A stretch of DNA of 64,000 nucleotides from sequence record SRR31156797_1634; one strand, given 5' to 3'. Position 1 is the first letter of the stretch. Each line of letters starts with the position of its first letter. A model generated the notes under the pieces. The model was not told the origin of the DNA. It saw only the letters and a list, made by a program, of their open reading frames with translations, and did not search any database. Positions 50,607-64,000 of the stretch are shown piece by piece. The translations under genes were made by a program, and so were the position numbers.

Positions 50607-50639
50607 CGAACAGCACTTATACGTGAAATATAATCCTTT

Positions 50640-52127
50640 ATGGGTATAAATACGGGGAATTTCAAAAATCTTGGACACTCTTATGAAGAAGGCTCCAATG
50701 CTGCCTTGCTCTCCGCTATTGCCCGAAGTGCGGAGGAACTTACGTCCGGTAAAGGCTGGCCGGACGGAGTCAACGATCTGCTGGCTGCTCTAGGCCAGGC
50801 CAGCGGGGTCAGTAGAGTTTGGATATTTCAAACAATAGAAATCACCGATACCCATATTACCCAGAATTATACTTTTGAATGGGCAGCTGCGCCCCGCTAC
50901 AAACAACTGGGCATGCCCATGTTCAGCATGTTTACCAACAAGATCAACCGCCCTGAATACCGGGAAACCATCCAGAGCAGGCTACGCGGCGAATGGCAGA
51001 AACTGGTCGTCGACCAGCTTAAACCTGGCTGGCTCAAAGACACTCTTGAAGTCCAGAAGATTAAATCCATGCTGACCATCCCGGTCATGGTCGAAGACCA
51101 ATGGTGGGGGACCTTGGGTTTTGACGATTGCGAACGGGCCTATAACTGGTCCGACGTGGAAGTAGCCCTACTCAAGACCGCCGGATATCTTATTTCAAAT
51201 GCAGTCCTCCGGGACCGCCTCAGCGCTAAACGCAGGCAATTCAGTATCCTCAAAGAGTTGACAGACAGCAGTGTCTGGGAATTTGATTTCAAGACCGGAC
51301 AAATCTGGTGCTCCCCGGAACTTCTATATTCTGTCCCAGTGCCAACTGACAATATCCGCTTTTCCCTGCATAAGGCTCTGCATTTGATCCACCCTGATGA
51401 CCGCCGCCCGCTGATTTCATCAGTCAGAAGATATCTCAAAGGGGACCGCAAAAAAGTTTTCCGTTTTGATATGCGTTTGTTTACTGATTGCGGAGACCTA
51501 CGCTGGGTTGAACTCATCGGCAACACCCGCAGCAATGAAGGTGGTAATCCAGAGCAACTGGCCGGAATTTTAATTGATATCCGCAAACGGAAACGCGAAG
51601 AAGAACGTCTCCGGGAAGAAGCAATTACCGATCCGCTCACCGGAGTGACCAACCGCCGTCTATTTGAACATCGCCTTCAAGAATTCATTGACTACTCCAT
51701 AAATGAAGGCACGGTATTCTCAGTTCTTTTCTTTGACATTGACCATTTCAAAAAACTCAATGACAGATACGGACATCAGGCCGGAGATCAAGGATTGCGT
51801 CATCTGGCGGAGATATGTGAATCCCACCTGCGACGCAACGACCTGCTGGCCCGTCTGGGCGGAGATGAATTCGCCCTGCTCCTGCCGGAAACTGACCAGA
51901 AAACAGCAACAGCAATCGGAAAAAGATTGCTCCGGGCCGTGGAGTCTACTCCCTTTAAGTATGACAACACAACACACATCATGACTATCAGCATCGGATT
52001 AGCCAGCAATGACGGCCGTCTGACCACCCCGGCACGTTTGATCGAAATTGCGGACACCGCCCTTTATGAAGCCAAGCAGAATGGACGAAACAGACTGGCG
52101 ACACTGACAGGCTGCCTGCTACGCTGA
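50640..52127 (+). CDS. GAF-PAS diguanylate cyclase
   Basis: WWGTLGFDDC GAF, PAS, DPLTG, RRND I-site, GGDEF. Confidence 0.93.
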   Translation: MGINTGNFKNLGHSYEEGSNAALLSAIARSAEELTSGKGWPDGVNDLLAALGQASGVSRVWIFQTIEITDTHITQNYTFEWAAAPRYKQLGMPMFSMFTNKINRPEYRETIQSRLRGEWQKLVVDQLKPGWLKDTLEVQKIKSMLTIPVMVEDQWWGTLGFDDCERAYNWSDVEVALLKTAGYLISNAVLRDRLSAKRRQFSILKELTDSSVWEFDFKTGQIWCSPELLYSVPVPTDNIRFSLHKALHLIHPDDRRPLISSVRRYLKGDRKKVFRFDMRLFTDCGDLRWVELIGNTRSNEGGNPEQLAGILIDIRKRKREEERLREEAITDPLTGVTNRRLFEHRLQEFIDYSINEGTVFSVLFFDIDHFKKLNDRYGHQAGDQGLRHLAEICESHLRRNDLLARLGGDEFALLLPETDQKTATAIGKRLLRAVESTPFKYDNTTHIMTISIGLASNDGRLTTPARLIEIADTALYEAKQNGRNRLATLTGCLLR

Positions 52128-52191
52128 GCAGAATTGACTTTTCAGAAAAGACTGGATTAGTTATTTACAACAAAAACATGCTGGAGGAGAT

Positions 52192-52365
52192 ATGGTCACC
52201 AGAATTGCTGCTGCACTGATCATTGCAGCACTTATGATTTCTTCCCTTGGCTGTGCGAAAATCGGCAAAGCCACAGGTCAGGCCGTCAAAGAAGTCAAGG
52301 AAATGCCCGGTGAATTCAAGAAGGGCTATGACGATGGTAGAACTTCTGAAGAAGACAATATTTAA
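52192..52365 (+). CDS. 57-aa small lipoprotein (entericidin-like size; not in ORF track)
   Basis: GGAGGA RBS; MVTRIAAALIIAALMISSLG-C lipobox; amphipathic mature part. Confidence 0.75.
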   Translation: MVTRIAAALIIAALMISSLGCAKIGKATGQAVKEVKEMPGEFKKGYDDGRTSEEDNI

Positions 52366-52388
52366 TTTTAACAAACAATTCCGCAGAC

Positions 52389-52410
52389 AGGGGCCTTGAG
52401 CCCCTTTTTT
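52389..52410 (+). terminator. Intrinsic terminator
   Basis: AGGGGC-CTTGA-GCCCCT followed by T-run. Confidence 0.6.
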
Positions 52411-52439
52411 GCATTAAACGAATTTTTCTCGGACAAAAT

Positions 52440-53162
52440 ATGTCAAAGATTGCTTTAATTACCGGAGCCAGCAAAGGCATCGGCGCAGCTATCGCCCTGC
52501 AACTGGCTGAAGACGGCTACGATATCTGGCTCAACTACCGCAGTGATGACGCGGGAGCAGAAAAAATCGCAGCAGCTGTCCACGAAATGGGCCGCAAATG
52601 CACCCTGCTTAAATTTGACGTAACCGATGAAGAAGCTGTGGAAAACGCTCTTTCACCGCTCTTGCAGGAAGAAGTGCCCTATATTGTGGTCAACAATGCC
52701 GGATTCGCACGCGATTCCATCATGATGATGATGTCTTCCGAAGACTGGAACAAAGTCCTGCAAGTCCACCTGAGCGGTTTCTTCAATGTAACCAAACCCG
52801 TGGTTTCACGCATGCTACGCAAACGAACAGGACGGATCATCAATATCGCTTCTACCTCCGGTGAGACAGGCGTTGCAGGACAGACCAACTACTCCGCAGC
52901 CAAGGCAGGTCTCATCGGGGCCACCCGCTCTTTGGCGGTCGAAGTTGCCAAGCGCAACATTCTGGTCAACGCAGTCACTCCCGGTTTCATTGAAACAGAC
53001 ATGGTCGCCGAACTCCCTGTAGATCAGATTAAAGGTCAGATCCCGCTGAAAAGGCTGGGCACACCTCAGGAAGTTGCCGGAGTGGTTTCCTTTCTCTGTT
53101 CGGACAAGGCGACCTACATCACCGGACAGACCATTGCTGTGAACGGCGGTATTCATACCTAG
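52440..53162 (+). CDS. fabG: 3-oxoacyl-ACP reductase (APE/flexirubin-cluster type)
   Basis: TGASKGIG, NNAG, NYSAAKAG, PGFIETDM. Confidence 0.88.
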   Translation: MSKIALITGASKGIGAAIALQLAEDGYDIWLNYRSDDAGAEKIAAAVHEMGRKCTLLKFDVTDEEAVENALSPLLQEEVPYIVVNNAGFARDSIMMMMSSEDWNKVLQVHLSGFFNVTKPVVSRMLRKRTGRIINIASTSGETGVAGQTNYSAAKAGLIGATRSLAVEVAKRNILVNAVTPGFIETDMVAELPVDQIKGQIPLKRLGTPQEVAGVVSFLCSDKATYITGQTIAVNGGIHT

Positions 53163-53296
53163 TATTGCATTCATCTAATTCATCAATATGAATCAGATGA
53201 AAAAATAATATATTTAATTTTTCCTTAAAATAAATATGAATTTGTTTTTATAAACCTATTTTAGGGCGTCAGACCTAGTTTCCGGGAGCTTTTCTT

Positions 53297-54511
53297 TTGT
53301 ACAAAGTGGCAATCACAGGCATCGGAGCCATTTCCGTTCTGGGATCGGACCTTGAAACCATTGCCGGTGCCCTTAAGATTGGGCGTTCCGGAATTGAGGT
53401 GGAAGGGGAACGGATCAAGCTCGGCTTTGAAAGCCCGCTAACCGGGGTAATCAAGGATTTCAATCCCAAAAAATGGCTGGGCCGTAAGCAACGCAAGACC
53501 ATGCCCGACTTCGCGGTACAGGCCTACGCTGCAGCCAAGCAGGCACTTGAGCAATCCGAACTTGCTGAAGAAGATTTGCACAACGATGAAAGCGGACTTA
53601 TTTTCGGCTGCGATTCCAGCTGCATTGCCGCCCTTGATCAGGTGGAACGGCTCAAGGAAAGAGGCGAGACTTCGCTCATCGGAAGCGGCGCAGTTTTCCG
53701 CTCCATGACCTCCTGCGTAACCATGAACCTGAACACCCTTTTCAAGACCCGTGGTGCAGCGTGGACCATCAGTTCAGCCTGTTCCAGCGGCGGGCATGCC
53801 GTGGGTCAGGCATTCAACCTCATTGCCTCAGGCCAGCAGGAACGGGTCATTTGCGGAGGCGCGCAGGAACTCAACTGGCAATCCATGTGCAGCTTTGACG
53901 GACTGGGGGCTTTTTCCACCCAAACCGAGAATCCCGCACAAGCCAGCCGCCCCTTTGACAAAGAGCGCGACGGGCTGGTTCCCAGCGGCGGCGCAGCTGC
54001 CATCATGCTTGAACGTTACGAGCTGGCAAAAAAACGCGGTGCCGAAATTTTAGGAGTAGTCAGCGGATATGGTTTTTCCTCGGACGGCGAACATATTTCA
54101 GTTCCCGGCAGGGACGGGCTGGCAAGGGCCGGAGCCAAGGCCCTCAAACAGGCCGGACTCACTCCTGCTGACATTGACTACATCTGCGCCCATGCCACCT
54201 CCACTCCTGCAGGAGACAGCGCCGAAGCAGCCAATATCCGCACCCTTTTCGACGATAAATTTCCGCGCATATCCTCCACAAAATCCATGACCGGACACGA
54301 ATTGTGGATGTCCGGGGCCAGCCAAGTGGTCTACACGACCCTCATGAACCGCTATGGATTCACTGCGCCGAACATAAATTTCAGCGGGGGTGATGACGAG
54401 ACATCCGGTCTGAACATACTCACTGAAACCGACAACCGTCCCCCGCAAAAAGCCCTGCTCAATTCCGCAGGATTCGGCGGAACCAACTCCTGCCTCGTGC
54501 TTAAATTCTAA
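53297..54511 (+). CDS. Beta-ketoacyl-ACP synthase (FabB/F family) 1
   Basis: SSACSSG, HATST, GHELWMSG, GFGGTN; TTG start. Confidence 0.92.
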   Translation: MYKVAITGIGAISVLGSDLETIAGALKIGRSGIEVEGERIKLGFESPLTGVIKDFNPKKWLGRKQRKTMPDFAVQAYAAAKQALEQSELAEEDLHNDESGLIFGCDSSCIAALDQVERLKERGETSLIGSGAVFRSMTSCVTMNLNTLFKTRGAAWTISSACSSGGHAVGQAFNLIASGQQERVICGGAQELNWQSMCSFDGLGAFSTQTENPAQASRPFDKERDGLVPSGGAAAIMLERYELAKKRGAEILGVVSGYGFSSDGEHISVPGRDGLARAGAKALKQAGLTPADIDYICAHATSTPAGDSAEAANIRTLFDDKFPRISSTKSMTGHELWMSGASQVVYTTLMNRYGFTAPNINFSGGDDETSGLNILTETDNRPPQKALLNSAGFGGTNSCLVLKF

Positions 54512-56007
54512 TGACTCTATACGATCACATAGTTGTTGGTGCGGGAATTTCCGGCATGACCTCAGCCCTTTTGCTGGCAAAACAAGGCCACAAAGTCGCA
54601 TTAGTGGAAGCCTTTCCTCTTCCAGCCCCGACAGCACGTGGATTCAGCAGACAGGGTGTGCATTTCGAAACCGGAATCCACCTCATCGGCGGGATGGGTG
54701 ATGGCGATCCGCTGGATACATATTTTAAACATCTGGGCATCAGTGACGAACTGGTCAAAATCCCTTTCAAAAAAGACGGCTGCGACTGCTTCCGCTTTGA
54801 AAAACAAAAGACCCAAATATGCCTGCCCTATGGTTATAAGCGGGTCCGCCAAACTCTGGAGCAAACATTCCCCGCAGAGAAAATTGCCATCGACAAATAT
54901 CTGGAACGGATCAGGACAATTTTCGATTCATCATCCTTCCTTAATTTCAAACGGAATTTCAGTCTGGACTCCCTAGCCCACGATGAAACAGAATCCCTAC
55001 GCGATTACCTTGATTCCATCACTGAGAATCAGGAACTTAAAGACCTGCTCTGCTGCCACTCCCTGCTTTACGGCACCCCGCCGGAACAGGCCATGCTCTC
55101 CACCCACGCCCTTGTGGCCGGATCATATTTCCGTTCTTCGCACACCATTGAAGGCGGCGGCAAAGCTCTTGTTGATACTTACTTGAGGCAGCTCAAGAAG
55201 CATGGGGTGGATATTTTCTGTGGCAAAAGGGCAGAGCGTATCAAACACGATGCAGACAAAAATTTCACAGGTTTGCTGCTGGATGACGGAAGCGAATTGC
55301 GTGGCAAAATCTGCATCTGGTCCGCACATCCGGCGTCCATGCTGCCTTGCGTTGAGGACGGTGCTTTTCGCCCGGTATTCAAACGCAGAATCAATGAATT
55401 GCAGGAAACCGTGTCTGCGCTGATTCTTTTCGGGATAGCCGAAACTCCGGTAGAAACATTGCAAGGCCGAAACATCTACCTCTGGCCGGAATCAGATTAC
55501 AACGAAGTCCTTTCCGGCAAGGCCGGGATGGCAGAAAACGCAATCTTCCTTTCCGCAGGGCAGACACTTAGCCGGAATGATAAACAGAGCGTGACCGCCA
55601 TCATGCCCTACAGTTTTGAGAAATTCAGCAGATGGCAGGATTCAAGCCTACGCAACAGACCGCAGGATTACCTTGATTTCAAAGCCGAACTTATGGCGGA
55701 ATTTGAAGAACAGGTATTTAACCGCTGTCCGGAATTAAACGGGCAGGTAAAATTCATTGATGCAGCAACTCCGCTGAGCCTACGCGATTACTGCAATTCC
55801 CCTTACGGCAGCATGTACGGTGCGGCCCATACTGTTTCACAATACAATCCCCTCCCGGCTACCAAGATCAAAGGACTGCTACTGGCCGGACAGTCCATCA
55901 TCGCCCCCGGAGTTATGGGCGCAGTGGTCTCCGCTTACCTGACCTGCGGATTCATCTGCGGACACGAAAAGATTCACGAGGAACTTCAATGCATATACAA
56001 CGCATAG
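54511..56007 (+). CDS. Phytoene desaturase/retinol saturase-family FAD oxidoreductase
   Basis: GAGISG, FETGIH, TPLS..DY....GSMYG, LAGQS...PGV.G. Confidence 0.85.
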   Translation: MTLYDHIVVGAGISGMTSALLLAKQGHKVALVEAFPLPAPTARGFSRQGVHFETGIHLIGGMGDGDPLDTYFKHLGISDELVKIPFKKDGCDCFRFEKQKTQICLPYGYKRVRQTLEQTFPAEKIAIDKYLERIRTIFDSSSFLNFKRNFSLDSLAHDETESLRDYLDSITENQELKDLLCCHSLLYGTPPEQAMLSTHALVAGSYFRSSHTIEGGGKALVDTYLRQLKKHGVDIFCGKRAERIKHDADKNFTGLLLDDGSELRGKICIWSAHPASMLPCVEDGAFRPVFKRRINELQETVSALILFGIAETPVETLQGRNIYLWPESDYNEVLSGKAGMAENAIFLSAGQTLSRNDKQSVTAIMPYSFEKFSRWQDSSLRNRPQDYLDFKAELMAEFEEQVFNRCPELNGQVKFIDAATPLSLRDYCNSPYGSMYGAAHTVSQYNPLPATKIKGLLLAGQSIIAPGVMGAVVSAYLTCGFICGHEKIHEELQCIYNA

Positions 56008-57215
56008 TCATCACCGGAATGGGCGCAATTTCCCCACTAGGCAGCGGAGTGAAGGAACTTTGGAGCGGACTTGTTGCAGGACGTTCCGGCATCAGCCATA
56101 TGGAAGAACTTGAGCACGTCAAAGGCTTGCGTCCGCGCATTGCCGGACGTGTCCCGGAAGTTAATATTAAAGCAATTCCACGCAAAGCCCGCCGGACCAT
56201 GTCCAATCTTTCTATTTTCGCCGCCCTTGCCGCACTTGAAGCTATTGAACAGGCTGGACTAGAGGAAGAAATGTTAACCGGAGGACGGACTGGACTTTCT
56301 ATAGGTTCTACCACTGGAAGTTCGCAGGCTCTGGAACAATTCTTCAAGCTTTACCTGCCTGAAAATTCCCTTGAAGCTATCCGCAGTACTGAGTTTTTCA
56401 AGATCATGAACCACAGTGCAGCCGCCAACCTTGCTCAATTCTTAAGAATCAGTGGACGGGTTATCGCGGCCTCGGCAGCCTGCTCCACCGGATGCCAAAA
56501 CATTGGTTTGGCAGCGGAAGCAATTGCCACAGGAAAACAGGATGCGATGCTCTGCGGCGGTACGGATGAACTGCATCCCTTAACCGTAGGCACCTTCGAT
56601 ATTATTGAAGCTGCTTCCACTTCCGGGGCAGATGATCCCACAAGCGCGTCCCGCCCCTTTGACGTTAACCGGGACGGCATTGTCTGTTCTGAAGGTGCGG
56701 GCATACTTCTGCTGGAAAGCTATGAACATGCCCAAAAGCGCGGAGCCGAAATTCTGGCCGAAATCACAGGTTTTTCATCACTGTGCGACAGCAGCAACAT
56801 GGCATCCCCCAGTGCGGATGCTATTGCCCGCTGTATGGCAGAAGCCTTGAAAGATGCCGACATTTCCGAATCAGACATTGATTATGTGAACGCCCACGCC
56901 ACCGGGACCTTACAGGGAGATGCTTCCGAGGCACAGGCTATAGCAGGTTTGCTTAGCAAAAATCCCCCGGTAAGCAGTTTAAAGGGCCATCTGGGCCATA
57001 CCATGGCTGCCAGCGGAGCTATTGAAACCATCGCAACAGTGCGCATGATGCAGAAAAGTACAATCATTCCCACAGCAAACCTCACAACTCCTGCCGATGA
57101 ATGCTCTACAATAAACAACACCTTGCATTTGCAGGAAAGACCAATTACATATGCGCTGAAAAATAATTTCGCCCTTGGCGGTATAAATACATCGCTGGTA
57201 TTGAGGAGATCATAA
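55989..57215 (+). CDS. Beta-ketoacyl-ACP synthase (FabB/F family) 2
   Basis: SAACSTG, HATGT, KGHLGHTMAASG, NFALGG. Confidence 0.92.
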   Translation: MHIQRIVITGMGAISPLGSGVKELWSGLVAGRSGISHMEELEHVKGLRPRIAGRVPEVNIKAIPRKARRTMSNLSIFAALAALEAIEQAGLEEEMLTGGRTGLSIGSTTGSSQALEQFFKLYLPENSLEAIRSTEFFKIMNHSAAANLAQFLRISGRVIAASAACSTGCQNIGLAAEAIATGKQDAMLCGGTDELHPLTVGTFDIIEAASTSGADDPTSASRPFDVNRDGIVCSEGAGILLLESYEHAQKRGAEILAEITGFSSLCDSSNMASPSADAIARCMAEALKDADISESDIDYVNAHATGTLQGDASEAQAIAGLLSKNPPVSSLKGHLGHTMAASGAIETIATVRMMQKSTIIPTANLTTPADECSTINNTLHLQERPITYALKNNFALGGINTSLVLRRS

Positions 57216-57469
57216 TGAATGACGCAGAAATCATAAAAAGAATAAACTCCGCTTTAGCCGAAGAATTCGAGCTGGAGCTGGACGAACTGGTCCCTGAAGC
57301 AGTCTTCAAAGATGACCTTGACCTCGACAGCCTTGATGCTGTGGATATGGTCATCGTTCTGGAGCAGGAATTCGGGATCAAAATCAAGAAAGACGAAGCC
57401 TTCAAGGCAATACGTACTCTCGGGGATTTACACAAATTCATCCTGAGCAAAAAAGAAGAAGCCGCTTAA
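57215..57469 (+). CDS. Acyl carrier protein
   Basis: Acidic 84 aa, DLDSLDAVD phosphopantetheine site. Confidence 0.92.
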   Translation: MNDAEIIKRINSALAEEFELELDELVPEAVFKDDLDLDSLDAVDMVIVLEQEFGIKIKKDEAFKAIRTLGDLHKFILSKKEEAA

Positions 57470-57481
57470 TATAAGCGGCTT
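57459..57481 (+). terminator. Hairpin overlapping the ACP stop (partial terminator or mRNA stabiliser)
   Basis: AAGCCGCTTA-ATA-TAAGCGGCTT 10-bp stem. Confidence 0.55.
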
Positions 57482-57505
57482 TCTACCCTTCCCACTTTTC
57501 CCCCA

Positions 57506-58258
57506 ATGCCCCAATTCCTCAAACTTATCTGGATCAACACCGGGATATACCTGAGCATCATCCTCTGGACTCTGGCCGGGGTCATCATTTCGCCGCTCTG
57601 CTACCTGTTCTTTACCCGCATACTGAGATGGGAAAAACCGAAAACCCTGCGTAAAATGATCTGGTACTACGGCTGGACCAGTTCTAAACTGATGTCTGTG
57701 TTCGTAGATATCAAGTGGCCTGAACAGCGGAAACTCCCCTCGCCCTGTATCATTGTCGCCAACCACGAATCTTTCTTCGACCCCTATCTTGTCTCCTTCC
57801 AGCCACAGCGCAACATATGTATGGCTGTACGCAACTGGCCCTTTAAAATCCCCTTCTACGGATTCTACATGAAACTTGCGGGCTACATAAATGTTGAAAC
57901 TGATGATCTGGATGAGATCATTGAACAAGCGGAAACAGCTTTGGATCAGGATGCCACGCTCATGTTCTTTCCCGAAGGGACCCGCAGCAAGGACGGCAAC
58001 CTGAACCGCTTCCATTCCGGCCCCTTTCACCTTGCCGTTCAAACCGGACTGCCCATTGTCCCCCTGTGCATTACCGGGACTTATAATATGCTTCCCCGCG
58101 GACACATGCTAATCCGCCCAACTAAAGTACGAGGCACAATACTTTCTCCCATTTATCCTGACCAATTCCAAAACACGCAAAGCCCGCATATTGAATTGCG
58201 CCGCGCGGTTAAAACAACTATGGTTGCTTGCATTCAGGAAATGAATCAGGAAGCGTAA
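57506..58258 (+). CDS. PlsC-like lysophospholipid acyltransferase
   Basis: NHESFFD, FPEGTRS, PIVP. Confidence 0.9.
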   Translation: MPQFLKLIWINTGIYLSIILWTLAGVIISPLCYLFFTRILRWEKPKTLRKMIWYYGWTSSKLMSVFVDIKWPEQRKLPSPCIIVANHESFFDPYLVSFQPQRNICMAVRNWPFKIPFYGFYMKLAGYINVETDDLDEIIEQAETALDQDATLMFFPEGTRSKDGNLNRFHSGPFHLAVQTGLPIVPLCITGTYNMLPRGHMLIRPTKVRGTILSPIYPDQFQNTQSPHIELRRAVKTTMVACIQEMNQEA

Positions 58259-58302
58259 CAGCGATTTTCACGAATTTAACTATCAAGATGAGGATGTTAC
58301 AA

Positions 58303-58698
58303 ATGAGAAATCTCCGTATTGTTGCTTTTGTACTTGTTGCCTGCGCACTTTTTCTCGGCGGATGCAGAACCGCCCCCATCCAAAACATTGAGATGGCCCC
58401 GATAGTTTCCACCAGCCAGCAGGCCCGCTCCATGGAAAGTGTGAAAAACGCTATTATCAAAGGCGGCTATGACCGTGGATGGCAGATGAGTGATGTCGCT
58501 CCCGGACACCTTATAGCTACCCTGAACATCCGCTCCCATCAGGCAGTTGTGGACATTACCTACACCCCTGAAAATTACAGCATCAACTATAAAGACAGCA
58601 CCAACCTGAAACATAAAGGGAACGTGATTCACAGTAACTACAACGCCTGGATCAAAAACCTTGCCGGGGCCATCAATCGCGAATTGGGCCAGATTTAA
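58303..58698 (+). CDS. Lipoprotein of unknown function
   Basis: Signal peptide ending LGG-C; RGW, IHSNYNAWIKNL; GAGGA RBS. Confidence 0.75.
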   Translation: MRNLRIVAFVLVACALFLGGCRTAPIQNIEMAPIVSTSQQARSMESVKNAIIKGGYDRGWQMSDVAPGHLIATLNIRSHQAVVDITYTPENYSINYKDSTNLKHKGNVIHSNYNAWIKNLAGAINRELGQI

Positions 58699-58721
58699 CA
58701 ACAAAACTGACGAGAACAACT

Positions 58722-59753
58722 ATGAATTCAAACCGTTGCTGGGGCAGTCCTTTTACCAAGGCTGAAATTGAACAAACCCTCAAGAACAAGCAATTGCTCA
58801 CTGCAGAGCTTGAGTTAAGCAGGGTCTGTGACCTGCGCTGCATCTACTGCTATGCTTCATCCGGGGAAAAGCTCAACAACGAGCTTGATTACGATGAGAT
58901 TACCAATGCAGTGGACCAATGCCAGAGCCTCGGCGCGCGCAAAATAATAATCCTCGGCGGGGGAGAACCTATGCTTTACCCCCGCATTATAGATGTAATC
59001 CGTTATATCCATAGTCTCGGTCTGGAAATAGAGCTGTTCAGTAACGGAACCCGGATCACCCCGGAAATCGCATCCGAACTATATTCCATCGGCGTGCAGC
59101 CGGTTATTAAATTCAACAGCCTCAATCCAGAAATTCAGGACCATCTGGCCGGCAAAAAAGATGCCCACAAAGCAATCCGCCAAGGGCTTAGCAATCTTCT
59201 TGAAGCAGGATACGGCAAAGGAGATATTCCCATTGGTGCCCAGACCATCATCTGCCGCCAGAATTTTGCCGAAATCCCGGAAATGTGGCGCTGGCTGCGC
59301 ACCCGTAATATTATCCCCTATTTCGAAACTATCACGGATCAGGGCCGAGCCAAGGATCATGTGGAACTGGCACTCAGTCCTGAAAAGATAGGAGAATTAT
59401 TCCAGAAACTTTCACGTATTGACCGAGAAGAATTCGGCATAGAATGGGAACCGAAACCTCCAGTAGCTGCATTTTCCTGCAAACGTCATTTCTATTCCTG
59501 CACTATCACCACTACCGGGGAGATTATCCCCTGTCCGGGAGTGGATATTTCCGCAGGCAATCTGCGTTTTGACACACTGGAAAATATCATTTCGCAGAGC
59601 GACGTATTCAACAACCTGCGCAACATCCGCCAGAACATCACCGGACCGTGCAAGACATGTGATTTAAACACAGAATGTTACGGCTGCCGGGGCATGGCCC
59701 ACCATTTGAACGGCGATTACCTTTCATCCGACCCGCTCTGCTGGCGCAACTAA
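58722..59753 (+). CDS. Radical SAM/SPASM enzyme (NirJ/PqqE-like architecture)
   Basis: CDLRCIYC, GGGEP; C...PC...GNL...CKTC.....CYGCR...DPLC. Confidence 0.9.
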   Translation: MNSNRCWGSPFTKAEIEQTLKNKQLLTAELELSRVCDLRCIYCYASSGEKLNNELDYDEITNAVDQCQSLGARKIIILGGGEPMLYPRIIDVIRYIHSLGLEIELFSNGTRITPEIASELYSIGVQPVIKFNSLNPEIQDHLAGKKDAHKAIRQGLSNLLEAGYGKGDIPIGAQTIICRQNFAEIPEMWRWLRTRNIIPYFETITDQGRAKDHVELALSPEKIGELFQKLSRIDREEFGIEWEPKPPVAAFSCKRHFYSCTITTTGEIIPCPGVDISAGNLRFDTLENIISQSDVFNNLRNIRQNITGPCKTCDLNTECYGCRGMAHHLNGDYLSSDPLCWRN

Positions 59754-59767
59754 TTCCGGAGTTTTAA

Positions 59768-60262
59768 ATGAGTCTTCCCATGCAGGCTGAAAAACTGCTG
59801 CCCCATCGCGGACAGATGCTGCTCATCGACAGAGTGCTTACTGCTGAAGAAAACGCAGGGACCGCACTTGCTGACCTTTCCACACAGTACATCGCTAAAG
59901 GAACGGACGGCAATTTGCTGGCTCCGTTTTACATTGAACTGGTGGCACAAACATACGCCGCAGTGTGCGGTTACCAGCTTAAATCTATTGGTCAGCCCGT
60001 ACCTGAAGGCTATCTTGTGGGTGTTCAAAAATTTCAGATCATGCCCCAAAACACCATGGTATTTACCAGCGACCAACTGCTGGTGAATGTACAGACTGTA
60101 GGTGGTTTTGACGGATTCGCAGTGGTAGAAGGCACGGTCAGCCGTGAAGGAAAAACATTGGCCGAGGGTAGAATCAAAATATTTGTACCGCAGGATGAGT
60201 CCATGGCCGAACTGTTTACGCAGGCAGAATCCGGAGAAAATGCAGTCTCATGGCAATTGTAA
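59768..60262 (+). CDS. Hotdog-fold dehydratase-like protein (ApeP-like)
   Basis: LLPHRGQMLLID, IELVAQ, GYLVG. Confidence 0.8.
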   Translation: MSLPMQAEKLLPHRGQMLLIDRVLTAEENAGTALADLSTQYIAKGTDGNLLAPFYIELVAQTYAAVCGYQLKSIGQPVPEGYLVGVQKFQIMPQNTMVFTSDQLLVNVQTVGGFDGFAVVEGTVSREGKTLAEGRIKIFVPQDESMAELFTQAESGENAVSWQL

Positions 60263-60882
60263 GAAAAACAATTCTGCTCACTTTTCTACTGCTGATCATT
60301 ATGGAAGGTAGTGTTTTCGCAGACAAACAGACTGATTTTCTAAAAGACCTGCAAGCTAGTTCACAAGCAATCCACTCCATCAGCAGCGATTTTACCCAGC
60401 AAAGCCATATCGCACTTTTCGCAGATATCATGGAATCCAAAGGAAAATTCTGCTTTGCCCGTCCGGATAACCTGCGCTGGGAATATACCGAACCATTTGT
60501 ATCCGGCTTCCTGCTTAAGGGACAGAAAGGGTTGAAATGGGACGGAGCAGCGAAAGAGTCGACCCCGTTCGAGACCGAGACATCACCGGAAATGGCGATT
60601 ATCTCAGAACAGATTCTGGCTTGGACAACCATGAATATTCCGTGGTTACAATCTCTATATTCCATCAAAGTGACCAATTATACCCCGGCAGCGATGGAGC
60701 TGACCCCGAAGTCACGCAAGACAAAACAATTTTTAAGTCTGATCCGCATCTTTTTTGCACCCAAGGCAACCCATCTTGAATCCATTGAATTGCATGAGCC
60801 GGGTGGGGATTACACAAAAATCATCTTTGCCAACGTACACTTAAATCAAAAACTGGATCAGGATATTTTCCTGAAAGAGTAA
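60250..60882 (+). CDS. LolA-like outer-membrane lipid/lipoprotein carrier
   Basis: Signal peptide, FTQ, SKGKF...P..LRWEYTEP, GDYT.I.F. Confidence 0.85.
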   Translation: MAIVRKTILLTFLLLIIMEGSVFADKQTDFLKDLQASSQAIHSISSDFTQQSHIALFADIMESKGKFCFARPDNLRWEYTEPFVSGFLLKGQKGLKWDGAAKESTPFETETSPEMAIISEQILAWTTMNIPWLQSLYSIKVTNYTPAAMELTPKSRKTKQFLSLIRIFFAPKATHLESIELHEPGGDYTKIIFANVHLNQKLDQDIFLKE

Positions 60883-60884
60883 AA

Positions 60885-63275
60885 ATGTTTTTCAGCAAGT
60901 TGAATAATCTCGCGACAGAAAGCAGAAAAGATCAAATAAAAAGCTCACTGTTTCTTATTTTTTTCGTCCTCTTCTGCGCCATCCCGCTGATCTCGGTTTC
61001 TTTTTCCGAAGACATTTCGGCCATGCTCCCCAATGGTGAAAACGGAGAAATCAGCCGCGATTTTGTTCTGCTTCAAAAAGCTCCCTTAGCCGGAAAAGTA
61101 CTTATTTCCATTTCCAGTAACACTCTTGGAGAAAAAACACTTGGTGATGTAGCCCAAAGCCTAGCCAGCAGAATGAACAGTCCGCTGCTTGAGGATTACA
61201 ATTCTCTGGAAACAACTCCACAGGAGATAATGGATTACCTGCTCAAGCAAGCCCCTAATCTGACCACACAAGATGATCTGGAAAAATTAAATAAACTGAC
61301 CAGTAAAGAATCAATTGAGCAAAATTTAAGCGACGCAAAGAAACTACTTATTTCTCCGGCAGGAATCGGAATGCGCGGGATTATCGCCACAGACCCGCTT
61401 AATTTACGCATGACCTACCTATCCAAAATAGCATCCATGCAGAACCTGCCCAGCACCAAAAGAGTAGGCAATAGATACTTCGTCAGCGGCGAAAACGCGC
61501 TGTTGCTCATTGCGAAAACAAACATCCCCATGACCGATTCCAAGAACGGACTCCTGCTGCTGGATCGTTTTAAAGAAATAAAAAAAGATGCATTAGCGGA
61601 AAACAATCTCGTAAACGATGACATTTACATCGAAATGCTGAGCGGACATCGCTACACAACCGCCAATGCCTCAGTCATCAAAAGCGACATCCTGACTGTT
61701 TCGATCATCTCTCTTGGCGCGCTGATACTGCTTTTTTTCTTTGGATTCCGCAGCAAAGGAGCCTTAAGCGTTTTTCTTGCGCCGGGTGTTGCAATTATGG
61801 CCGGACTGGGAAGCTGCGCTTTTATATACAGCGACATGTCCGCAATCGTCATCGGCTTCGGTGCTGTACTCATGGGTATTTCCATCGACTTTGCTGTGCA
61901 CACCTATTTTGCCTTGGCGGAAACCCCGGAAGACAAAGCAGGAGCCATGCGCAAAGTCAGCAAACCCGTACTTTTCGGAGCCGCAACATCCTGCGCATCC
62001 TTTGCCGCCCTGTATATTTCAGGCATTCCGGGCATCAAACAACTTTCCATCTTCTCTGTAGCCGGGATAATCGCAGCCAGCGGCTACGCCCTGCTCTTTG
62101 TTCCCCGATTCTGTAATTCATTCCCTGAAGCCGGGAAGACTCAATCTTTTCTTCAAATTAACGGAAACAAAAAACTCATATTTTGGTGTACAGGACTCAT
62201 ATTTGCGGTTTCAATTGTAGGCGCATTGAACAATAATTTTGACACGGAACTGAAAAACCTAGGCTATATTTCAAAAGATATTTCCCACACGGAAAAACAT
62301 TTTCAGGAGAAATGGAGCCGAATGCACGCCCAATCCATGCTTTTTGCTACAGGGGAAAATATGGATCTTGCCCTGCAAAAGAATGAAAACGCATGGTCCG
62401 ACATCAGACAAAACCTGAACGACATTAAAGCGGTCAATATTGCGGAAACCCTGCCTTCCCCCAAAACCATTGCGGAAAACAGAAACCGCTGGTCCTCATT
62501 CTGGGATGAAACCAAAGAACAAACAGAGCATGCCGTTTTGGAAAGCAGCAAGAAACTCGGCTTCACGTCCAGAGCATTTCTCCCGGCAATGGACCGAATT
62601 TCGTCCCCCCCTCCAGCCCTTAATGCAAATATTTACAGCACCGGACCGCTTAATTTTCTCTATGAGCTACTCATTCCTCCCAGCAACAACGGATCTGATA
62701 AACTGATCATGACCCTGCTCCCGGACAATGAACAAGTGGATGAATACTATTCTCCACAAAAAGAAAAAGAACTGGGCGTGCGCCTTGTTTCCCAGTCCCG
62801 CTTTAAAACCAGCCTTGAACAGGAAATGAAGCAGGACATCATCAAATTCATCACTTGCTCGGGACTTATGGTTGCGGTGCTTATTTTCGGGTTGTTTCGG
62901 AACCTGCGCCAAGCAATTCTGGCACTTTTCCCTGCAATTTTCGGTGTAGCGGTGACTTTCGGAATACTGGGGATTCTTCAGATTCCGTTGAATATTTTTC
63001 ACATCGTAGCTTTACCCCTTGTAATCGGCCTTGGAGCCGACTACGGAATCTTCATGGTTTTTCAAGAAATAAGAACTCCCTCACTATGGACCGTCAAAGC
63101 GGTCAAAATTTCGGGCCTGACCTCACTTGCAGGCTTCGGAGTGCTGATCTTTGCCAAACATCCCTCGCTGCACTCATTGGGAGCAACTGTTTCCATCGGA
63201 ATCACAGCAGCCCTGTGCTGCGCGATTTTTGTGCTCCCGCAACTGCTGCGATTACAAGGAGGTAGACATGCATAA
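60885..63275 (+). CDS. MMPL-family exporter (APE-cluster type)
   Basis: Two TM bundles, GISIDFAVH and GLGADYGIF. Confidence 0.85.
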   Translation: MFFSKLNNLATESRKDQIKSSLFLIFFVLFCAIPLISVSFSEDISAMLPNGENGEISRDFVLLQKAPLAGKVLISISSNTLGEKTLGDVAQSLASRMNSPLLEDYNSLETTPQEIMDYLLKQAPNLTTQDDLEKLNKLTSKESIEQNLSDAKKLLISPAGIGMRGIIATDPLNLRMTYLSKIASMQNLPSTKRVGNRYFVSGENALLLIAKTNIPMTDSKNGLLLLDRFKEIKKDALAENNLVNDDIYIEMLSGHRYTTANASVIKSDILTVSIISLGALILLFFFGFRSKGALSVFLAPGVAIMAGLGSCAFIYSDMSAIVIGFGAVLMGISIDFAVHTYFALAETPEDKAGAMRKVSKPVLFGAATSCASFAALYISGIPGIKQLSIFSVAGIIAASGYALLFVPRFCNSFPEAGKTQSFLQINGNKKLIFWCTGLIFAVSIVGALNNNFDTELKNLGYISKDISHTEKHFQEKWSRMHAQSMLFATGENMDLALQKNENAWSDIRQNLNDIKAVNIAETLPSPKTIAENRNRWSSFWDETKEQTEHAVLESSKKLGFTSRAFLPAMDRISSPPPALNANIYSTGPLNFLYELLIPPSNNGSDKLIMTLLPDNEQVDEYYSPQKEKELGVRLVSQSRFKTSLEQEMKQDIIKFITCSGLMVAVLIFGLFRNLRQAILALFPAIFGVAVTFGILGILQIPLNIFHIVALPLVIGLGADYGIFMVFQEIRTPSLWTVKAVKISGLTSLAGFGVLIFAKHPSLHSLGATVSIGITAALCCAIFVLPQLLRLQGGRHA

Positions 63276-63789
63276 GTTCAAAACTATACTCCCCCTGCTA
63301 CTCTTAACAATTATAGCCGGATGTGCATCGCGAAGCACAATCGATCCTACTAACCCCGCAGATTCATCCACCTATCTGCTGCAACATTCCGGGGTGCTCT
63401 CCATCGCGGAAAAGCGGATGCCCTTGCGCGGCATGCTGCAACTCAAACCGAAGCAACGAAGCGCACGGGTGGTCATGCTCAATGACATGGGCATGAAACT
63501 ACTGGTCGCTGAAATCACTGCCGATAATGCTGGCGGTTTTGAATCTAAAAAACTTTTCGTCTCACCTTTCTTGCGTATGATTCCGCCTTTTTATGATGAA
63601 TCCATGCGTTGCATCTATGAAATGTACCTCGCCCCGCAACACGCGAATTCCCAAAAGGCAAATATCACCACCGAAGGCAAAAAAAGAATCGGCAACCGTG
63701 AATTCGCAGCCCATACCATCATCAACGATCCGCAAGGCAACTACAGTCTTGAACTTTTTCTTGATTCCGGATCACAAAAGGATTCTTAA
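63268..63789 (+). CDS. Lipoprotein (DUF3261-like)
   Basis: GGAGG RBS, IAG-C lipobox, VMLNDMGMKL. Confidence 0.65.
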   Translation: MHKFKTILPLLLLTIIAGCASRSTIDPTNPADSSTYLLQHSGVLSIAEKRMPLRGMLQLKPKQRSARVVMLNDMGMKLLVAEITADNAGGFESKKLFVSPFLRMIPPFYDESMRCIYEMYLAPQHANSQKANITTEGKKRIGNREFAAHTIINDPQGNYSLELFLDSGSQKDS

Positions 63790-63793
63790 ACAG

Positions 63794-64000
63794 ATGGAAC
63801 TGAACGAACATATTTCAAACAGCTGTGGCGACCTTGAAAAAACAGAATCAGGCTACAGCCGTTCATATCTTTTCAAGGAATCATTCCCCGGATTCGATGG
63901 ACACTTCCCCGGCAACCCCATCCTGCCCGGAGTGATTCAGACCTTGCTCGGACAAGAGTCCTCCATGGAAGCACTTATTCTTGAATACCCTGCTGAAAAG
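63794..64000 (+). CDS. FabZ/ApeI-like dehydratase, truncated by window end (not in ORF track)
   Basis: Manual translation MELNEHISNSCGDLEK...FPGFDGHFPGNPILPGVIQ. Confidence 0.8.
   Translation, partial: MELNEHISNSCGDLEKTESGYSRSYLFKESFPGFDGHFPGNPILPGVIQTLLGQESSMEALILEYPAEK

Follow-up and report, generated by a model that had tools for sequence, protein, structure and literature searches.

An aryl-polyene-type lipid gene cluster of Maridesulfovibrio with a flavoenzyme of the phytoene desaturase family and a SPASM radical SAM enzyme

The end of the window (the whole 64,000-nucleotide stretch of record SRR31156797_1634 analyzed here) carries a real, tightly packed operon of the aryl polyene (APE) type, which in addition encodes a SPASM-domain radical SAM enzyme and a flavoenzyme of the phytoene desaturase family. 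Both enzymes had been proposed from the sequence alone and were borne out by the family matches (Table 1). The host is a marine sulfate reducer of the genus Maridesulfovibrio (Desulfovibrionales) and a strict anaerobe. With a modest preference, we consider that the operon would encode an anaerobe's version of the APE/APEL pathway, making a lipid that is exported to the outer membrane and whose second acyl chain, bound to ApeF, is modified without oxygen.

Thirteen genes lie on the same strand within positions 52440 to 64000, often overlapping; at most junctions the start and stop codons overlap or almost touch, and the last gene is cut at the window end. Every gene listed in the sequence-only reading was confirmed on this strand and in its place. 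Region 48749 to 63999 is collinear with a Maridesulfovibrio relative (L001/L085) at 82.6% nucleotide identity over 15,274 columns, and the radical SAM enzyme is 91% identical between the two. The arrangement is far beyond chance because the gene order was found again in many of 80 related loci. Judging from the relative, the window would hold the first 13 genes of an operon of about 21.

Table 1. Genes of the operon within the window
Product	Position	Strand	Supporting match or feature
FabG, 3-oxoacyl-ACP reductase (ApeQ equivalent)	52440-53162	+	adh_short_C2 E 8.6e-63
KS1, FabB-like ketosynthase	53297-54511	+	ketoacyl-synt N and C domains
FAD oxidoreductase, phytoene desaturase/CrtD/RetSat-like	54511-56007	+	Amino_oxidase E 4e-16
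KS2, ApeR-type ketosynthase	55989-57215	+	ApeR 38.7% identity
ACP1, ApeF-type acyl carrier protein	57215-57469	+	PP-binding E 7.5e-11
PlsC-type lysophospholipid acyltransferase (ApeD equivalent)	57506-58258	+	PF01553 E 2.6e-23
Lipoprotein lipA, ApeA homologue	about 58288-58698	+	signal peptide, lipobox LGGC
Radical SAM enzyme with SPASM domain	58722-59753	+	Radical_SAM E 1.7e-22, SPASM E 1.3e-7
ApeP-like hotdog dehydratase	59768-60262	+	ApeP 26.8% identity, E 9e-11
LolA-like periplasmic carrier (ApeL equivalent)	60250-60882	+	PF03548 E 2.9e-19
MMPL/HAE3 RND-type transporter (ApeM equivalent)	60885-63275	+	MMPL E 1.6e-8
Second lipoprotein lipB, in the position of ApeN (LolB-like)	63268-63789	+	lipobox IAGC
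ApeI/FabZ-like hotdog dehydratase, cut by window end	63794-64000	+	weak FabZ matches on fragment

Direct BLAST of 22 cluster proteins, including those of the relative L001, against the 18 ApeA-R proteins of E. coli CFT073 (gene table in PMC8253772) revealed that 16 of the 22 match 14 of the 18, namely ApeA, D, E, F, H, I, K, L, M, O, P, Q and R plus an ApeJ that is divided over two proteins, in support of the proposed type II PKS/FAS and export cluster of the APE type. FabG exceeds the cut-off of NCBIfam PRK05653.1-5 (310.8 versus 273) and is 46.7% identical to ApeQ over 242 amino acids. KS2 aligns with ApeR over 408 amino acids (E 2e-97), and its best solved relatives are 7f27 and 4ewg (308 bits), the latter an ApeR homologue (PMC8358021). 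KS1 is closest to FabB/KAS I structures (4xox, 286 bits); its only Ape match is ApeR, at 31% identity, for which KS2 is the better match, and on this comparison KS1 has no partner of its own in the E. coli ape cluster. ACP1 is 42.5% identical to ApeF (E 9e-16; versus ApeE, E 1e-6), ACP2 is 41.5% identical to ApeE, and the PlsC-type enzyme is 33% identical to ApeD over 100 amino acids (E 4e-12). The best solved relative of the ApeP-like dehydratase is 6qsr_B (E 9e-5); its L001 orthologue matches PF22817 (ApeP-like) at E 1.2e-4, under the cut-off, and across 21 sequences Glu57 is invariant and His13 nearly so. The full L001 orthologue of the truncated dehydratase matches FabA (PF07977, E 6e-7) and ApeI (28% identity, E 5e-6).

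Among the export proteins, the LolA-like carrier is 24% identical to ApeL (E 7e-6), and the HpnN-like transporter matches HAE3 (TIGR00921, E 1e-31) and, in three segments, ApeM (24-28% identity). The lipoprotein lipA, which may start at the ATG at 58288, 58294 or 58303, matched no Pfam or NCBIfam family, and its L001 orthologue aligns with E. coli ApeA at 39% identity (E 6e-27). The earlier reading of two lipoproteins stands as to their presence, and the first can now be assigned as an ApeA homologue. For lipB we found no family match with the window protein and no BLAST match to ApeN; its orthologue in L006 reached 19.7 bits for LolB and 19.2 bits for DUF3261, both under the cut-offs, and it is placed here by its position.

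Like the APE/APEL clusters of E. coli CFT073 and Xenorhabdus doucetiae, the operon has the gene successions LolA-MMPL-lipoprotein, KR-KS and acyltransferase-ACP, as well as two ACPs, a KS/CLF pair, paired ApeI/ApeP dehydratases, a thioesterase and an ApeH-like ligase. However, it adds the FabB-like KS1, the flavoenzyme, the SPASM radical SAM enzyme and a B12 radical SAM enzyme; these last three, together with lipB, the CLF and a 287-amino-acid protein, had no BLAST match among ApeA-R. Conversely, ApeB (methyltransferase) found no counterpart in this comparison, ApeG (COG4648) is also absent, and ApeJ corresponds to two proteins, a GT2+DUF2062 protein (34% identity to ApeJ residues 7-230) and an LpxL-like acyltransferase (20% identity to residues 270-550). 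The strictly anaerobic host is a further difference.

In the relative, the genes past the window end encode, in order, a thioesterase, the B12 radical SAM enzyme, the GT2, the LpxL-like acyltransferase, an ACP, KS3 with its CLF, and the ApeH-like ligase. The B12 radical SAM enzyme is a TIGR04072 member (690 bits versus a cut-off of 360), followed by BzaD (189 bits) and tryptophan 2-C-methyltransferase (146 bits). KS3 has a solved relative in 6qsp_A (191 bits), and the Cys-His-His triad is kept in KS1, KS2 and KS3, while the Cys is absent from the CLF. The ligase scores under its nearest curated cut-off (TIGR02372, 297.9 versus 334.7), and its alignment to ApeH spans only 190 amino acids. The sequence-only reading, which saw no aryl starter genes, is amended by this starter ligase in the closest relative. 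Neither an aromatic ammonia-lyase (TAL, PF00221) nor chorismate lyase UbiC (PF04345) was found in the genomes of two out of two close relatives. Therefore, an aryl head group is uncertain; the ligase, the CLF, the B12 radical SAM enzyme and half of the operon fall beyond the window and are deduced from the relative. That reading had also held that a canonical APE cluster downstream, giving a known pigment, would speak against it; the machinery is largely canonical APE, but it includes the B12 radical SAM enzyme and has no known pigment.

The SPASM radical SAM enzyme is a member of an unnamed family and lacks a counterpart in E. coli ApeA-R. Among curated families AhbD scores best, but its 135 bits lie far under the cut-off of 500. 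It carries the motif CX3CX2C plus the full SPASM cysteine set, with C36/C40/C43, C253, G266, C271, C310, C313, C319, C322 and C340 invariant, and the nearest folds to its structure model (pLDDT 87.6) are SkfB, SuiB, anSME and PqqE (Foldseek E 5e-17 to 7e-13). Motif, cysteines and fold are shared with AhbD/NirJ-type and other SPASM enzymes, but the protein falls far under all curated cut-offs, lacks the peptide-recognition N-terminal domain, and sits in a lipid-synthesis context. The FAD enzyme likewise reaches only 96 bits against CrtD (TIGR02733, cut-off 549.7), and its homologues are named "phytoene desaturase family" or "all-trans-retinol 13,14-reductase" in databases; it may desaturate, saturate or isomerize, and its sequence does not tell which.

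Synteny of the radical SAM gene is strong. Of the 58 loci that extend 6.5 kb or more upstream of it, 41 have PlsC, ACP1, KS2 and FAD genes immediately before it on the same strand (17 lack the full module), so that the gene is syntenic in related clusters; a lack of such synteny, which the sequence-only reading had named as counting against it, is not what we see. Five of 80 loci carry the radical SAM enzyme and the ApeP-like dehydratase as one fusion protein, and among the database matches listed, 9 of 120 homologues, 491-506 amino acids long, contain PF22817. Where both flanks could be read (44 loci), the FAD gene was found in 37, KS3 in 37 and the B12 radical SAM gene in 33, the last being out of reach in 11 loci that have the SPASM gene; LolA (26/44) and MMPL (24/44) lie within 10 kb, and the link to export genes is common, not universal.

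The operon falls in the "ladderane-like" family of clusters (Rattray 2009), to which antiSMASH gives the label "ladderane". "Ladderane-candidate" FAS II clusters were described in Kuenenia stuttgartiensis, Desulfotalea psychrophila, Geobacter and Pelobacter (PMC2649909), and the antiSMASH class occurs in non-anammox phyla (10.1101/2022.12.20.521206); the cluster type, noted since 2009, is not a novelty. The suggested link to these clusters is real, as the relative's TIGR04072 match indicates, and Pelobacter, Geobacter and Desulfobulbales loci are among the 80 syntenic ones. FabB/F paralogues, a phytoene-dehydrogenase-like protein, radical SAM enzymes, an acyl-CoA-ligase-like enzyme and a glycosyltransferase are common to both (PMC2649909), whereas the copy here comes from Maridesulfovibrio; we infer orthology to Kuste3342/3343 or DP1853/1855. 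The anammox "Cluster I" (KustE3603-3608: amxACP, amxFabZ, amxFabF2, amxFabFmut, PDH-like, B12 radical SAM), described as specific to ladderane producers, shares the KS pair adjoining a PDH-like flavoenzyme, a dedicated ACP, a dehydratase and a radical SAM enzyme, but one of its KSs is catalytically dead while both KS1 and KS2 here keep the triad, and the radical SAM enzyme beside the KS/flavoenzyme genes is of the B12 type there and of the SPASM type here (10.64898/2026.05.19.726425).

The flexirubin cluster of Chitinophaga pinensis (flx, PMC3992019) also has a type II PKS polyene system, KR, LolA, acyltransferase and glycosyltransferase, and FlxB and LolA2_flexi are the top or near-top NCBIfam matches of the window FabG and LolA. 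However, both lie under the cut-offs (313.9 versus 340; 121.2 versus 125), the two relatives' genomes yielded no TAL, and no dialkylresorcinol genes were seen here; we therefore reject flexirubin membership. Neither a FAD nor a radical SAM enzyme is named in the searched passages of that paper.

The radical enzymes of an ordinary APEL system could instead act on the aryl part, with the B12 radical SAM enzyme replacing ApeB to C-methylate the aromatic head and the SPASM enzyme and flavoenzyme making or trimming the starter acid; the product would then be close to a standard APEL. BzaD and tryptophan 2-C-methyltransferase, the next-best families of the B12 radical SAM enzyme, both methylate aromatic carbons; ApeB is missing, and another starter route is needed since UbiC and TAL, which commonly supply the starter, were not found in the two relatives' genomes. 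We nevertheless hold this unlikely, because the genes for the SPASM enzyme and the flavoenzyme lie within the ApeR-ApeF-ApeD-ApeA block, away from ACP2, KS3, CLF and ligase, the fusions join the radical SAM enzyme to a dehydratase subunit that handles ACP-bound intermediates, and a quarter of the both-flank loci have the SPASM enzyme with no B12 radical SAM gene within reach.

As Rattray et al. (2009) hypothesized, the KS paralogues, the desaturase-like flavoenzyme and the radical SAM enzymes could also place double bonds in ordinary fatty acyl chains that end up in bulk membrane lipids or hydrocarbons, with no aryl polyene. The FabB-like KS1, the family of the flavoenzyme and the failure to find UbiC and TAL in the two relatives' genomes fit such a pathway, as do the polyunsaturated hydrocarbons of Desulfotalea psychrophila, which has a syntenic cluster and in which no ladderanes were detected (PMC2649909). 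Yet the 14 Ape counterparts, among them the ApeH-like ligase, KS3 with CLF, split ApeJ and LolA/MMPL, argue for a specialized exported lipid rather than bulk membrane fatty acids, and a radical SAM orthologue (E <= 1e-60) occurs patchily, in 17 of the 121 genomes sampled from the order. Other pathways (ole/pfa) may account for the Desulfotalea hydrocarbons. We regard this second explanation as quite improbable. Cyclization of the polyene chain by the radical SAM enzymes to a cyclobutane (ladderane-like) or otherwise polycyclic lipid, as proposed for anammox ladderanes, draws on the KS paralogues, PDH-like flavoenzyme and TIGR04072-type enzyme common to the anammox candidates (PMC2649909, 10.64898/2026.05.19.726425, PMC13459092). 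It is very hard to reconcile with the syntenic cluster of D. psychrophila, where ladderanes were not detected (PMC2649909), with reports of ladderanes from anammox bacteria only (10.1101/2022.12.20.521206), and with a "Cluster I" described as unique to their producers (10.64898/2026.05.19.726425), and we give it hardly any weight.

In the anaerobic APE/APEL pathway that we favor, two chains would be built on two ACPs, as in the Xenorhabdus APEL proposal, in which a C26:5 conjugated acyl chain on ApeF is placed at sn-2 by ApeD, and ApeJ adds GalNAc and the APE (10.1101/2020.12.19.423268). The ApeH-like ligase would load an acid starter onto ACP2, which KS3:CLF, the KR and the ApeI/ApeP dehydratases would extend to a polyene, while KS1 and KS2 would build the second chain on ACP1. 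From gene order alone, we infer that the flavoenzyme and the SPASM enzyme act on this ACP1 chain: the former could alter its saturation or double-bond geometry, and the latter, offered its substrate through the ApeP-like subunit, might abstract a hydrogen atom for oxidation, desaturation or C-C cross-linking, although its nearest curated families use tetrapyrrole or peptide substrates, not lipids, which counts against lipid tailoring. The PlsC/ApeD-type enzyme would then esterify the chain to a lysophospholipid, the GT2 and the LpxL-like acyltransferase, jointly equivalent to ApeJ, would complete the lipid, and LolA, MMPL and the lipoproteins would carry it to the outer membrane. The cluster family, with at least 465 species-level matches, is widespread in anaerobes, and the KS1-FAD-KS2(ApeR)-ACP1(ApeF)-PlsC(ApeD)-radical SAM unit is kept across many anaerobic lineages, in which its radical enzymes may provide tailoring that is independent of oxygen.

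Pfam and NCBIfam scans together with translations confirmed that the feature is real and that the sequence-only reading had inventoried the genes of 52440-64000 correctly. The 13 genes all lie on the + strand, and their stops and starts overlap or almost abut. We followed the operon past the window end in L001 (extension L085), a Maridesulfovibrio MAG which is collinear with window positions 48749-63999 at 82.6% nucleotide identity over 15,274 columns, and whose radical SAM protein is 91% identical to that of the window. In this relative, the ApeI/FabZ-like dehydratase gene is followed by genes for a 4HBT thioesterase, a B12-binding radical SAM protein, a GT2+DUF2062 glycosyltransferase, an LpxL-like acyltransferase, a second acyl carrier protein (ACP2), a third ketosynthase (KS3), a short CLF-like protein (PF13723) and a 386-aa AMP-binding ligase. 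After the ligase come a secreted protein that belongs to no known family and a divergent GAF-domain sigma-54 activator just beyond the operon end. The secreted protein (287 aa) was not counted as an operon member, as it has neither a family nor an Ape counterpart.

Genes of the operon and its surroundings, with BLAST counterparts among the aryl-polyene (Ape) proteins of E. coli CFT073; positions are those of the window unless L001 or L085 is named
Feature	Position	Strand	Ape counterpart (identity)
Hybrid PAS histidine kinase/response regulator (899 aa) and GAF-PAS-GGDEF diguanylate cyclase (495 aa), directly upstream	47907-52127	+	
Small lipoprotein, 57-codon ORF (lipobox SSLGC, RBS GGAGGA)	52192-52365	+	
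FabG-type ketoreductase	52440-53162	+	ApeQ (46.7%)
KS1, FabB-like ketosynthase	53297-54511	+	ApeR (31%)
FAD amine-oxidase/CrtD-like enzyme (flavoenzyme)	54511-56007	+	
KS2, ApeR-type ketosynthase	55989-57215	+	ApeR (38.7%, E 2e-97)
ACP1	57215-57469	+	ApeF (42.5%)
PlsC-type acyltransferase	57506-58258	+	ApeD (33% over 100 aa)
Lipoprotein A	about 58288-58698	+	ApeA (39%)
Radical SAM/SPASM enzyme	58722-59753	+	
Hotdog dehydratase 1	59768-60262	+	ApeP (26.8%)
LolA	60250-60882	+	ApeL (24%)
MMPL/HAE3 transporter	60885-63275	+	ApeM (24-28%)
Lipoprotein B	63268-63789	+	
Hotdog dehydratase 2	from 63794, runs off window end	+	ApeI (27.9%)
Thioesterase (relative)			ApeK (32.8%)
B12 radical SAM protein (relative)	L001 15947-17341		
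GT2 glycosyltransferase (relative)			ApeJ N-terminal half (34%)
LpxL-like protein (relative)			ApeJ C-terminal half (20%)
ACP2 (relative)			ApeE (41.5%)
KS3 (relative)			ApeO (32.7%)
Ligase (relative)			ApeH (31% over 190 aa)
Sigma-54 activator (relative)	L085 12112-13704	+	

The kinase and diguanylate cyclase genes are also collinear in L001 (3-3407), and their products could regulate the lipid operon. The small lipoprotein ORF is conserved in four of the loci retained (L001, L002, L003 and L005); on its 3' side lies a GC-rich, terminator-like hairpin (52389-52405) with a T-run, some 35 bases ahead of the start of FabG. No sigma-70-like site was found in the 35 bases upstream of FabG, the sole one found being inside KS1. 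Because there is no space for a separate promoter of this type before FabG, the operon may be read through the terminator-like site. A sigma-54 promoter consensus had 0 matches anywhere in the window, and the 4 matches to Rfam were weak, each scoring far under its gathering threshold.

To relate the operon to a known system, 22 cluster proteins from the window and the collinear relative were compared by BLAST with the 18 Ape proteins encoded by E. coli CFT073 apeA-R, and 16 of the 22 matched 14 of the 18. Those without an Ape match were the flavoenzyme, both radical SAM proteins, lipoprotein B, the CLF and the 287-aa protein, while ApeB, ApeC, ApeG and ApeN had no counterpart among the 22. The CLF and lipoprotein B are located where ApeC-like and ApeN-like functions are expected. 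The APE core set consists of the ketosynthases ApeO and ApeR, the CLF ApeC, the ACPs ApeE and ApeF, the dehydratases ApeI and ApeP, the ketoreductase ApeQ and the transporter ApeM (10.1101/2020.12.19.423268). We found this set complete: ApeO, R, E, F, I, P, Q and M were recovered by BLAST, and the CLF only through PF13723 and the loss of its catalytic Cys; ACP2, KS3 and the CLF lie past the window end, in the collinear relative. Of the export trio ApeL-ApeM-ApeN (ApeN being a LolB-like DUF3261 protein), the first two have homologues in LolA and MMPL, and the third place is taken by a lipoprotein, lipoprotein B, with no match to ApeN. In Pfam, sub-threshold LolB/DUF3261 matches were obtained for 1 of 6 proteins (the window protein and its orthologues), an orthologue. 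An ESM Atlas search with lipoprotein A returned unnamed clusters only; its identity comes from the BLAST match to ApeA.

KS1, KS2 and KS3 all keep the Cys-His-His triad, which the CLF lacks at the Cys position. Searches of solved structures agree with the BLAST picture: the hotdog protein best matched 6qsr_B and KS1 best matched FabB proteins; KS3 matched 6qsp_A with 191 bits, and the best matches of KS2 were 4ewg and 7f27, of which 4EWG is described as an ApeR homologue (PMC8358021). The best solved relatives of KS3 and the CLF-like protein are chains B and C of one entry, 9s5h, a two-chain match that fits a putative KS/CLF-type heterodimer. 9s5h may be the anammox FabF heterodimer. With 14 of the 18 Ape counterparts and these structure matches, the operon amounts to a full ape-type cluster. 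Compared with E. coli ape, it adds four enzymes, namely KS1, the flavoenzyme, the SPASM radical SAM protein and the B12 radical SAM protein, but lacks the ApeB methyltransferase and ApeG.

The sequence-only reading had seen no aryl starter genes, which holds for the ammonia-lyase: PF00221, covering TAL as a source of 4-coumarate, had a match in 0 of the genomes of 2 close relatives, the control being positive in 5 genomes. For the activating enzyme it probably does not hold, because the ligase in L001/L085 places a putative starter-activating gene just past the window end. The nearest profile to this ligase is 4-coumarate-CoA ligase TIGR02372, which scored 297.9 bits, below its cut-off of 334.7. 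Chorismate lyase UbiC (PF04345), a source of 4-hydroxybenzoate, was likewise found in 0 of the 2 genomes, with a positive E. coli control. The suggested membership of the flexirubin group was not borne out, since FlxB (313.9 against a cut-off of 340) and LolA2_flexi (121.2 against 125) both fell short and PF00221 was found in neither of the 2 relatives' genomes. No dialkylresorcinol genes occur among the annotated cluster genes.

We then looked at the enzymes that set the operon apart. A SPASM protein with two auxiliary clusters is defined by CX3CX2C followed by a C-terminal CX9-15GX4C, CX2CX5CX2-3C and a final C. The radical SAM enzyme is such a protein with the complete cysteine set, comprising C36/C40/C43, C253-X12-G266-X4-C271, C310-X2-C313-X5-C319-X2-C322 and C340; these motif residues are all invariant in 15 sequences, and PF13186 matches with E 1.3e-7. 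Its predicted model (pLDDT 87.6) has just a short N-terminal helix ahead of the core and is nearest in fold to SkfB, SuiB, anSME, PqqE and CteB. The nearest curated profiles, AhbD and NirJ2, score far under their cut-offs. It belongs to an unnamed SPASM family whose substrate is not readable from sequence. The flavoenzyme scores weakly against CrtD/CrtI (96 bits against a cut-off of 550), and its homologues are named phytoene desaturase family or all-trans-retinol 13,14-reductase in the source databases; it may be a desaturase, a saturase or an isomerase. In the ApeP-like dehydratase, His13 is nearly invariant and Glu57 invariant, and these are positions that an active hotdog dehydratase would be expected to keep.

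At E <= 0.001, 940 database proteins are related to the radical SAM protein, and among the matches listed the closest is from Maridesulfovibrio. When one genome per species was scanned, there were matches to at least 600 stretches, at least 465 of which encode a radical SAM relative; 80 loci were kept, and the 22 proteins were searched by BLAST against all their ORFs. The sequence-only reading had staked its interpretation on the radical SAM gene being syntenic in related clusters, and so it is: PlsC, ACP1, KS2 and the flavoenzyme are encoded on the same strand immediately upstream of it in 41 of the 58 loci with at least 6.5 kb of upstream sequence. In the 44 loci with both flanks, we found the flavoenzyme in 37, KS3 in 37, the B12 radical SAM protein in 33, GT2 in 30, LolA in 26, the LpxL-like protein in 25 and MMPL in 24. 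The radical SAM protein is fused to the ApeP-like dehydratase in 5 of the 80 loci, and PF22817 is carried by 9 of the 120 database homologues listed (lengths 491-506 aa). In three Sumerlaeota loci (L016 8109-9080, L043 1763-2683 and L050 2595-3479), the ApeP-like ORF has about 295-324 aa, double the usual length, which points to another kind of fusion, perhaps one that joins two hotdog domains.

The remaining 17 of the 58 loci include a second architecture, of Omnitrophota and Nitrospirota type, in which KS genes lie to either side and radical SAM copies are more numerous. It is represented by L027, L029, L048, L075 and L077 (labelled Omnitrophota, 'Planctomycetia', Nitrospiraceae or Bacteroidales), which have no PlsC/ACP1 block and 1-5 B12 radical SAM genes across the group; L027 and L029 carry two SPASM radical SAM copies each. 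Record titles assign the loci to Desulfovibrionales, Desulfobulbales, Desulfobacterales, Geobacterales/Pelobacter, Thermodesulfovibrionia/Nitrospirota, Rokubacteria, Methylomirabilia, Lentisphaerae, Opitutales, Sumerlaeota, Omnitrophota and Bacteroidales. Of 121 genomes sampled from the closest relative's order, 17 have a radical SAM orthologue (E <= 1e-60), so the operon is accessory and patchily distributed.

The operon also has the marks of 'ladderane-type' FAS II clusters. A phytoene-dehydrogenase-like flavoenzyme lies among FabB/F paralogues together with a further syntenic radical SAM gene, and, as seen in the collinear relative, a TIGR04072 B12 radical SAM gene belongs to the lipid-synthesis cluster; its product there scores 690.1 bits against a cut-off of 360; each of the 2 relatives' genomes has 1 match above this cut-off. 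TIGR04072 was built on the cluster family of Rattray et al. According to that study, FAS II clusters are syntenic among Kuenenia stuttgartiensis, Desulfotalea psychrophila, Geobacter and Pelobacter, and share SAM-radical, phytoene-dehydrogenase-like and phenylacetyl-CoA-ligase-like enzymes and a glycosyltransferase (Rattray et al. 2009, PMC2649909). An anammox link through L029 and L027 was rejected, as hydrazine synthase alpha (PF18582) was found in 0 of the 2 genomes (each about 1.5 Mb), and the link to Kuenenia thus rests on the literature and TIGR04072. antiSMASH is reported to label such clusters 'ladderane', and the cluster type is transcribed in anoxic waters, being expressed in the Cariaco Basin in Desulfobacterota, Omnitrophota, Verrucomicrobiota and other phyla with function unknown (10.1101/2022.12.20.521206). 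A 2026 review of radical SAM enzymes that modify lipids names, in its available part, no characterised representative of this cluster's kind (PMC13459092), and our search of the available literature found no characterised product of the cluster type.

In aerobes, APE lipids give protection from reactive oxygen species. The Xenorhabdus aryl-polyene lipid (APEL) provides the framework for a possible function of the operon. It has a GalNAc-phosphate-glycerol backbone bearing an aryl polyene, a saturated acyl chain and a conjugated C26:5 acyl at sn-2; the second chain is proposed to be carried by ApeF and installed by ApeD, and the sugar and aryl polyene to be added by ApeJ (10.1101/2020.12.19.423268). 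In our operon, KS1, the flavoenzyme and the SPASM radical SAM enzyme are embedded in the ApeR-ApeF-ApeD-ApeA block, the most conserved unit across phyla, and a block of its own is made up by ACP2, KS3, the CLF and the ligase. From this embedding we infer that the radical SAM enzyme and flavoenzyme would act as tailoring enzymes on the ACP-bound, non-aryl chain of ApeF type; gene order points this way, and the fusions of radical SAM protein to a dehydratase subunit would fit it. The tailored chain would be esterified and the finished lipid exported via LolA, MMPL and the lipoproteins. Alternatively, the aryl head could be the target of the radical enzymes, with the B12 radical SAM protein functionally replacing the missing ApeB; the next-best curated relatives of this protein after TIGR04072, BzaD and tryptophan 2-C-methyltransferase, speak for this, and we regard it as unlikely.

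Taking up the tailoring of the non-aryl chain again, we tentatively suggest, as a possibility well short of probable, that the unit of FabB-like KS, PDH-like flavoenzyme, ApeR-type KS, ApeF-type ACP, ApeD-type acyltransferase and SPASM radical SAM enzyme, the last at times fused to a dehydratase, modifies an ACP-bound polyenoyl chain by radical chemistry so far undescribed, which would give strict anaerobes an outer-membrane lipid of a new class. Cross-linking, cyclisation and anaerobic desaturation are the candidate reactions. The operon might instead be the anaerobic PUFA/hydrocarbon pathway of Rattray et al.; polyunsaturated hydrocarbons were detected in Desulfotalea and ladderanes were not, in the available text (PMC2649909), and we rate this reading as quite improbable for an operon built as a full ape-type cluster. 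Ladderane-like cyclisation, to which the 'ladderane-type' gene content would point, seems to us highly improbable, the available portions of two sources reporting no ladderane lipids outside anammox bacteria (PMC2649909; 10.1101/2022.12.20.521206).

We conclude that the operon is a further member, from Maridesulfovibrio, of a known but uncharacterised APE-type outer-membrane-lipid family with radical SAM enzymes and a desaturase-like flavoprotein. What makes it interesting is the unsolved product, with its bearing on the radical chemistry of lipids, rather than any oddity of the present copy: the operon type pairs two radical SAM enzymes and a desaturase-like flavoprotein with aryl-polyene-lipid machinery in hundreds of anaerobic species. 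What is new here is the copy in Maridesulfovibrio, a genus of which members are in culture (complete genomes of named strains were among the matches), and the gene-by-gene map onto E. coli apeA-R, which singles out the extra enzymes. Identification of the product would give real meaning to the antiSMASH 'ladderane' label on non-anammox genomes, would define new radical lipid chemistry and may inform ladderane biosynthesis. If the radical-modification reading were true, culturable Maridesulfovibrio would be a tractable model for unsolved ladderane chemistry, because relatives of these enzymes are candidates for ladderane synthesis.
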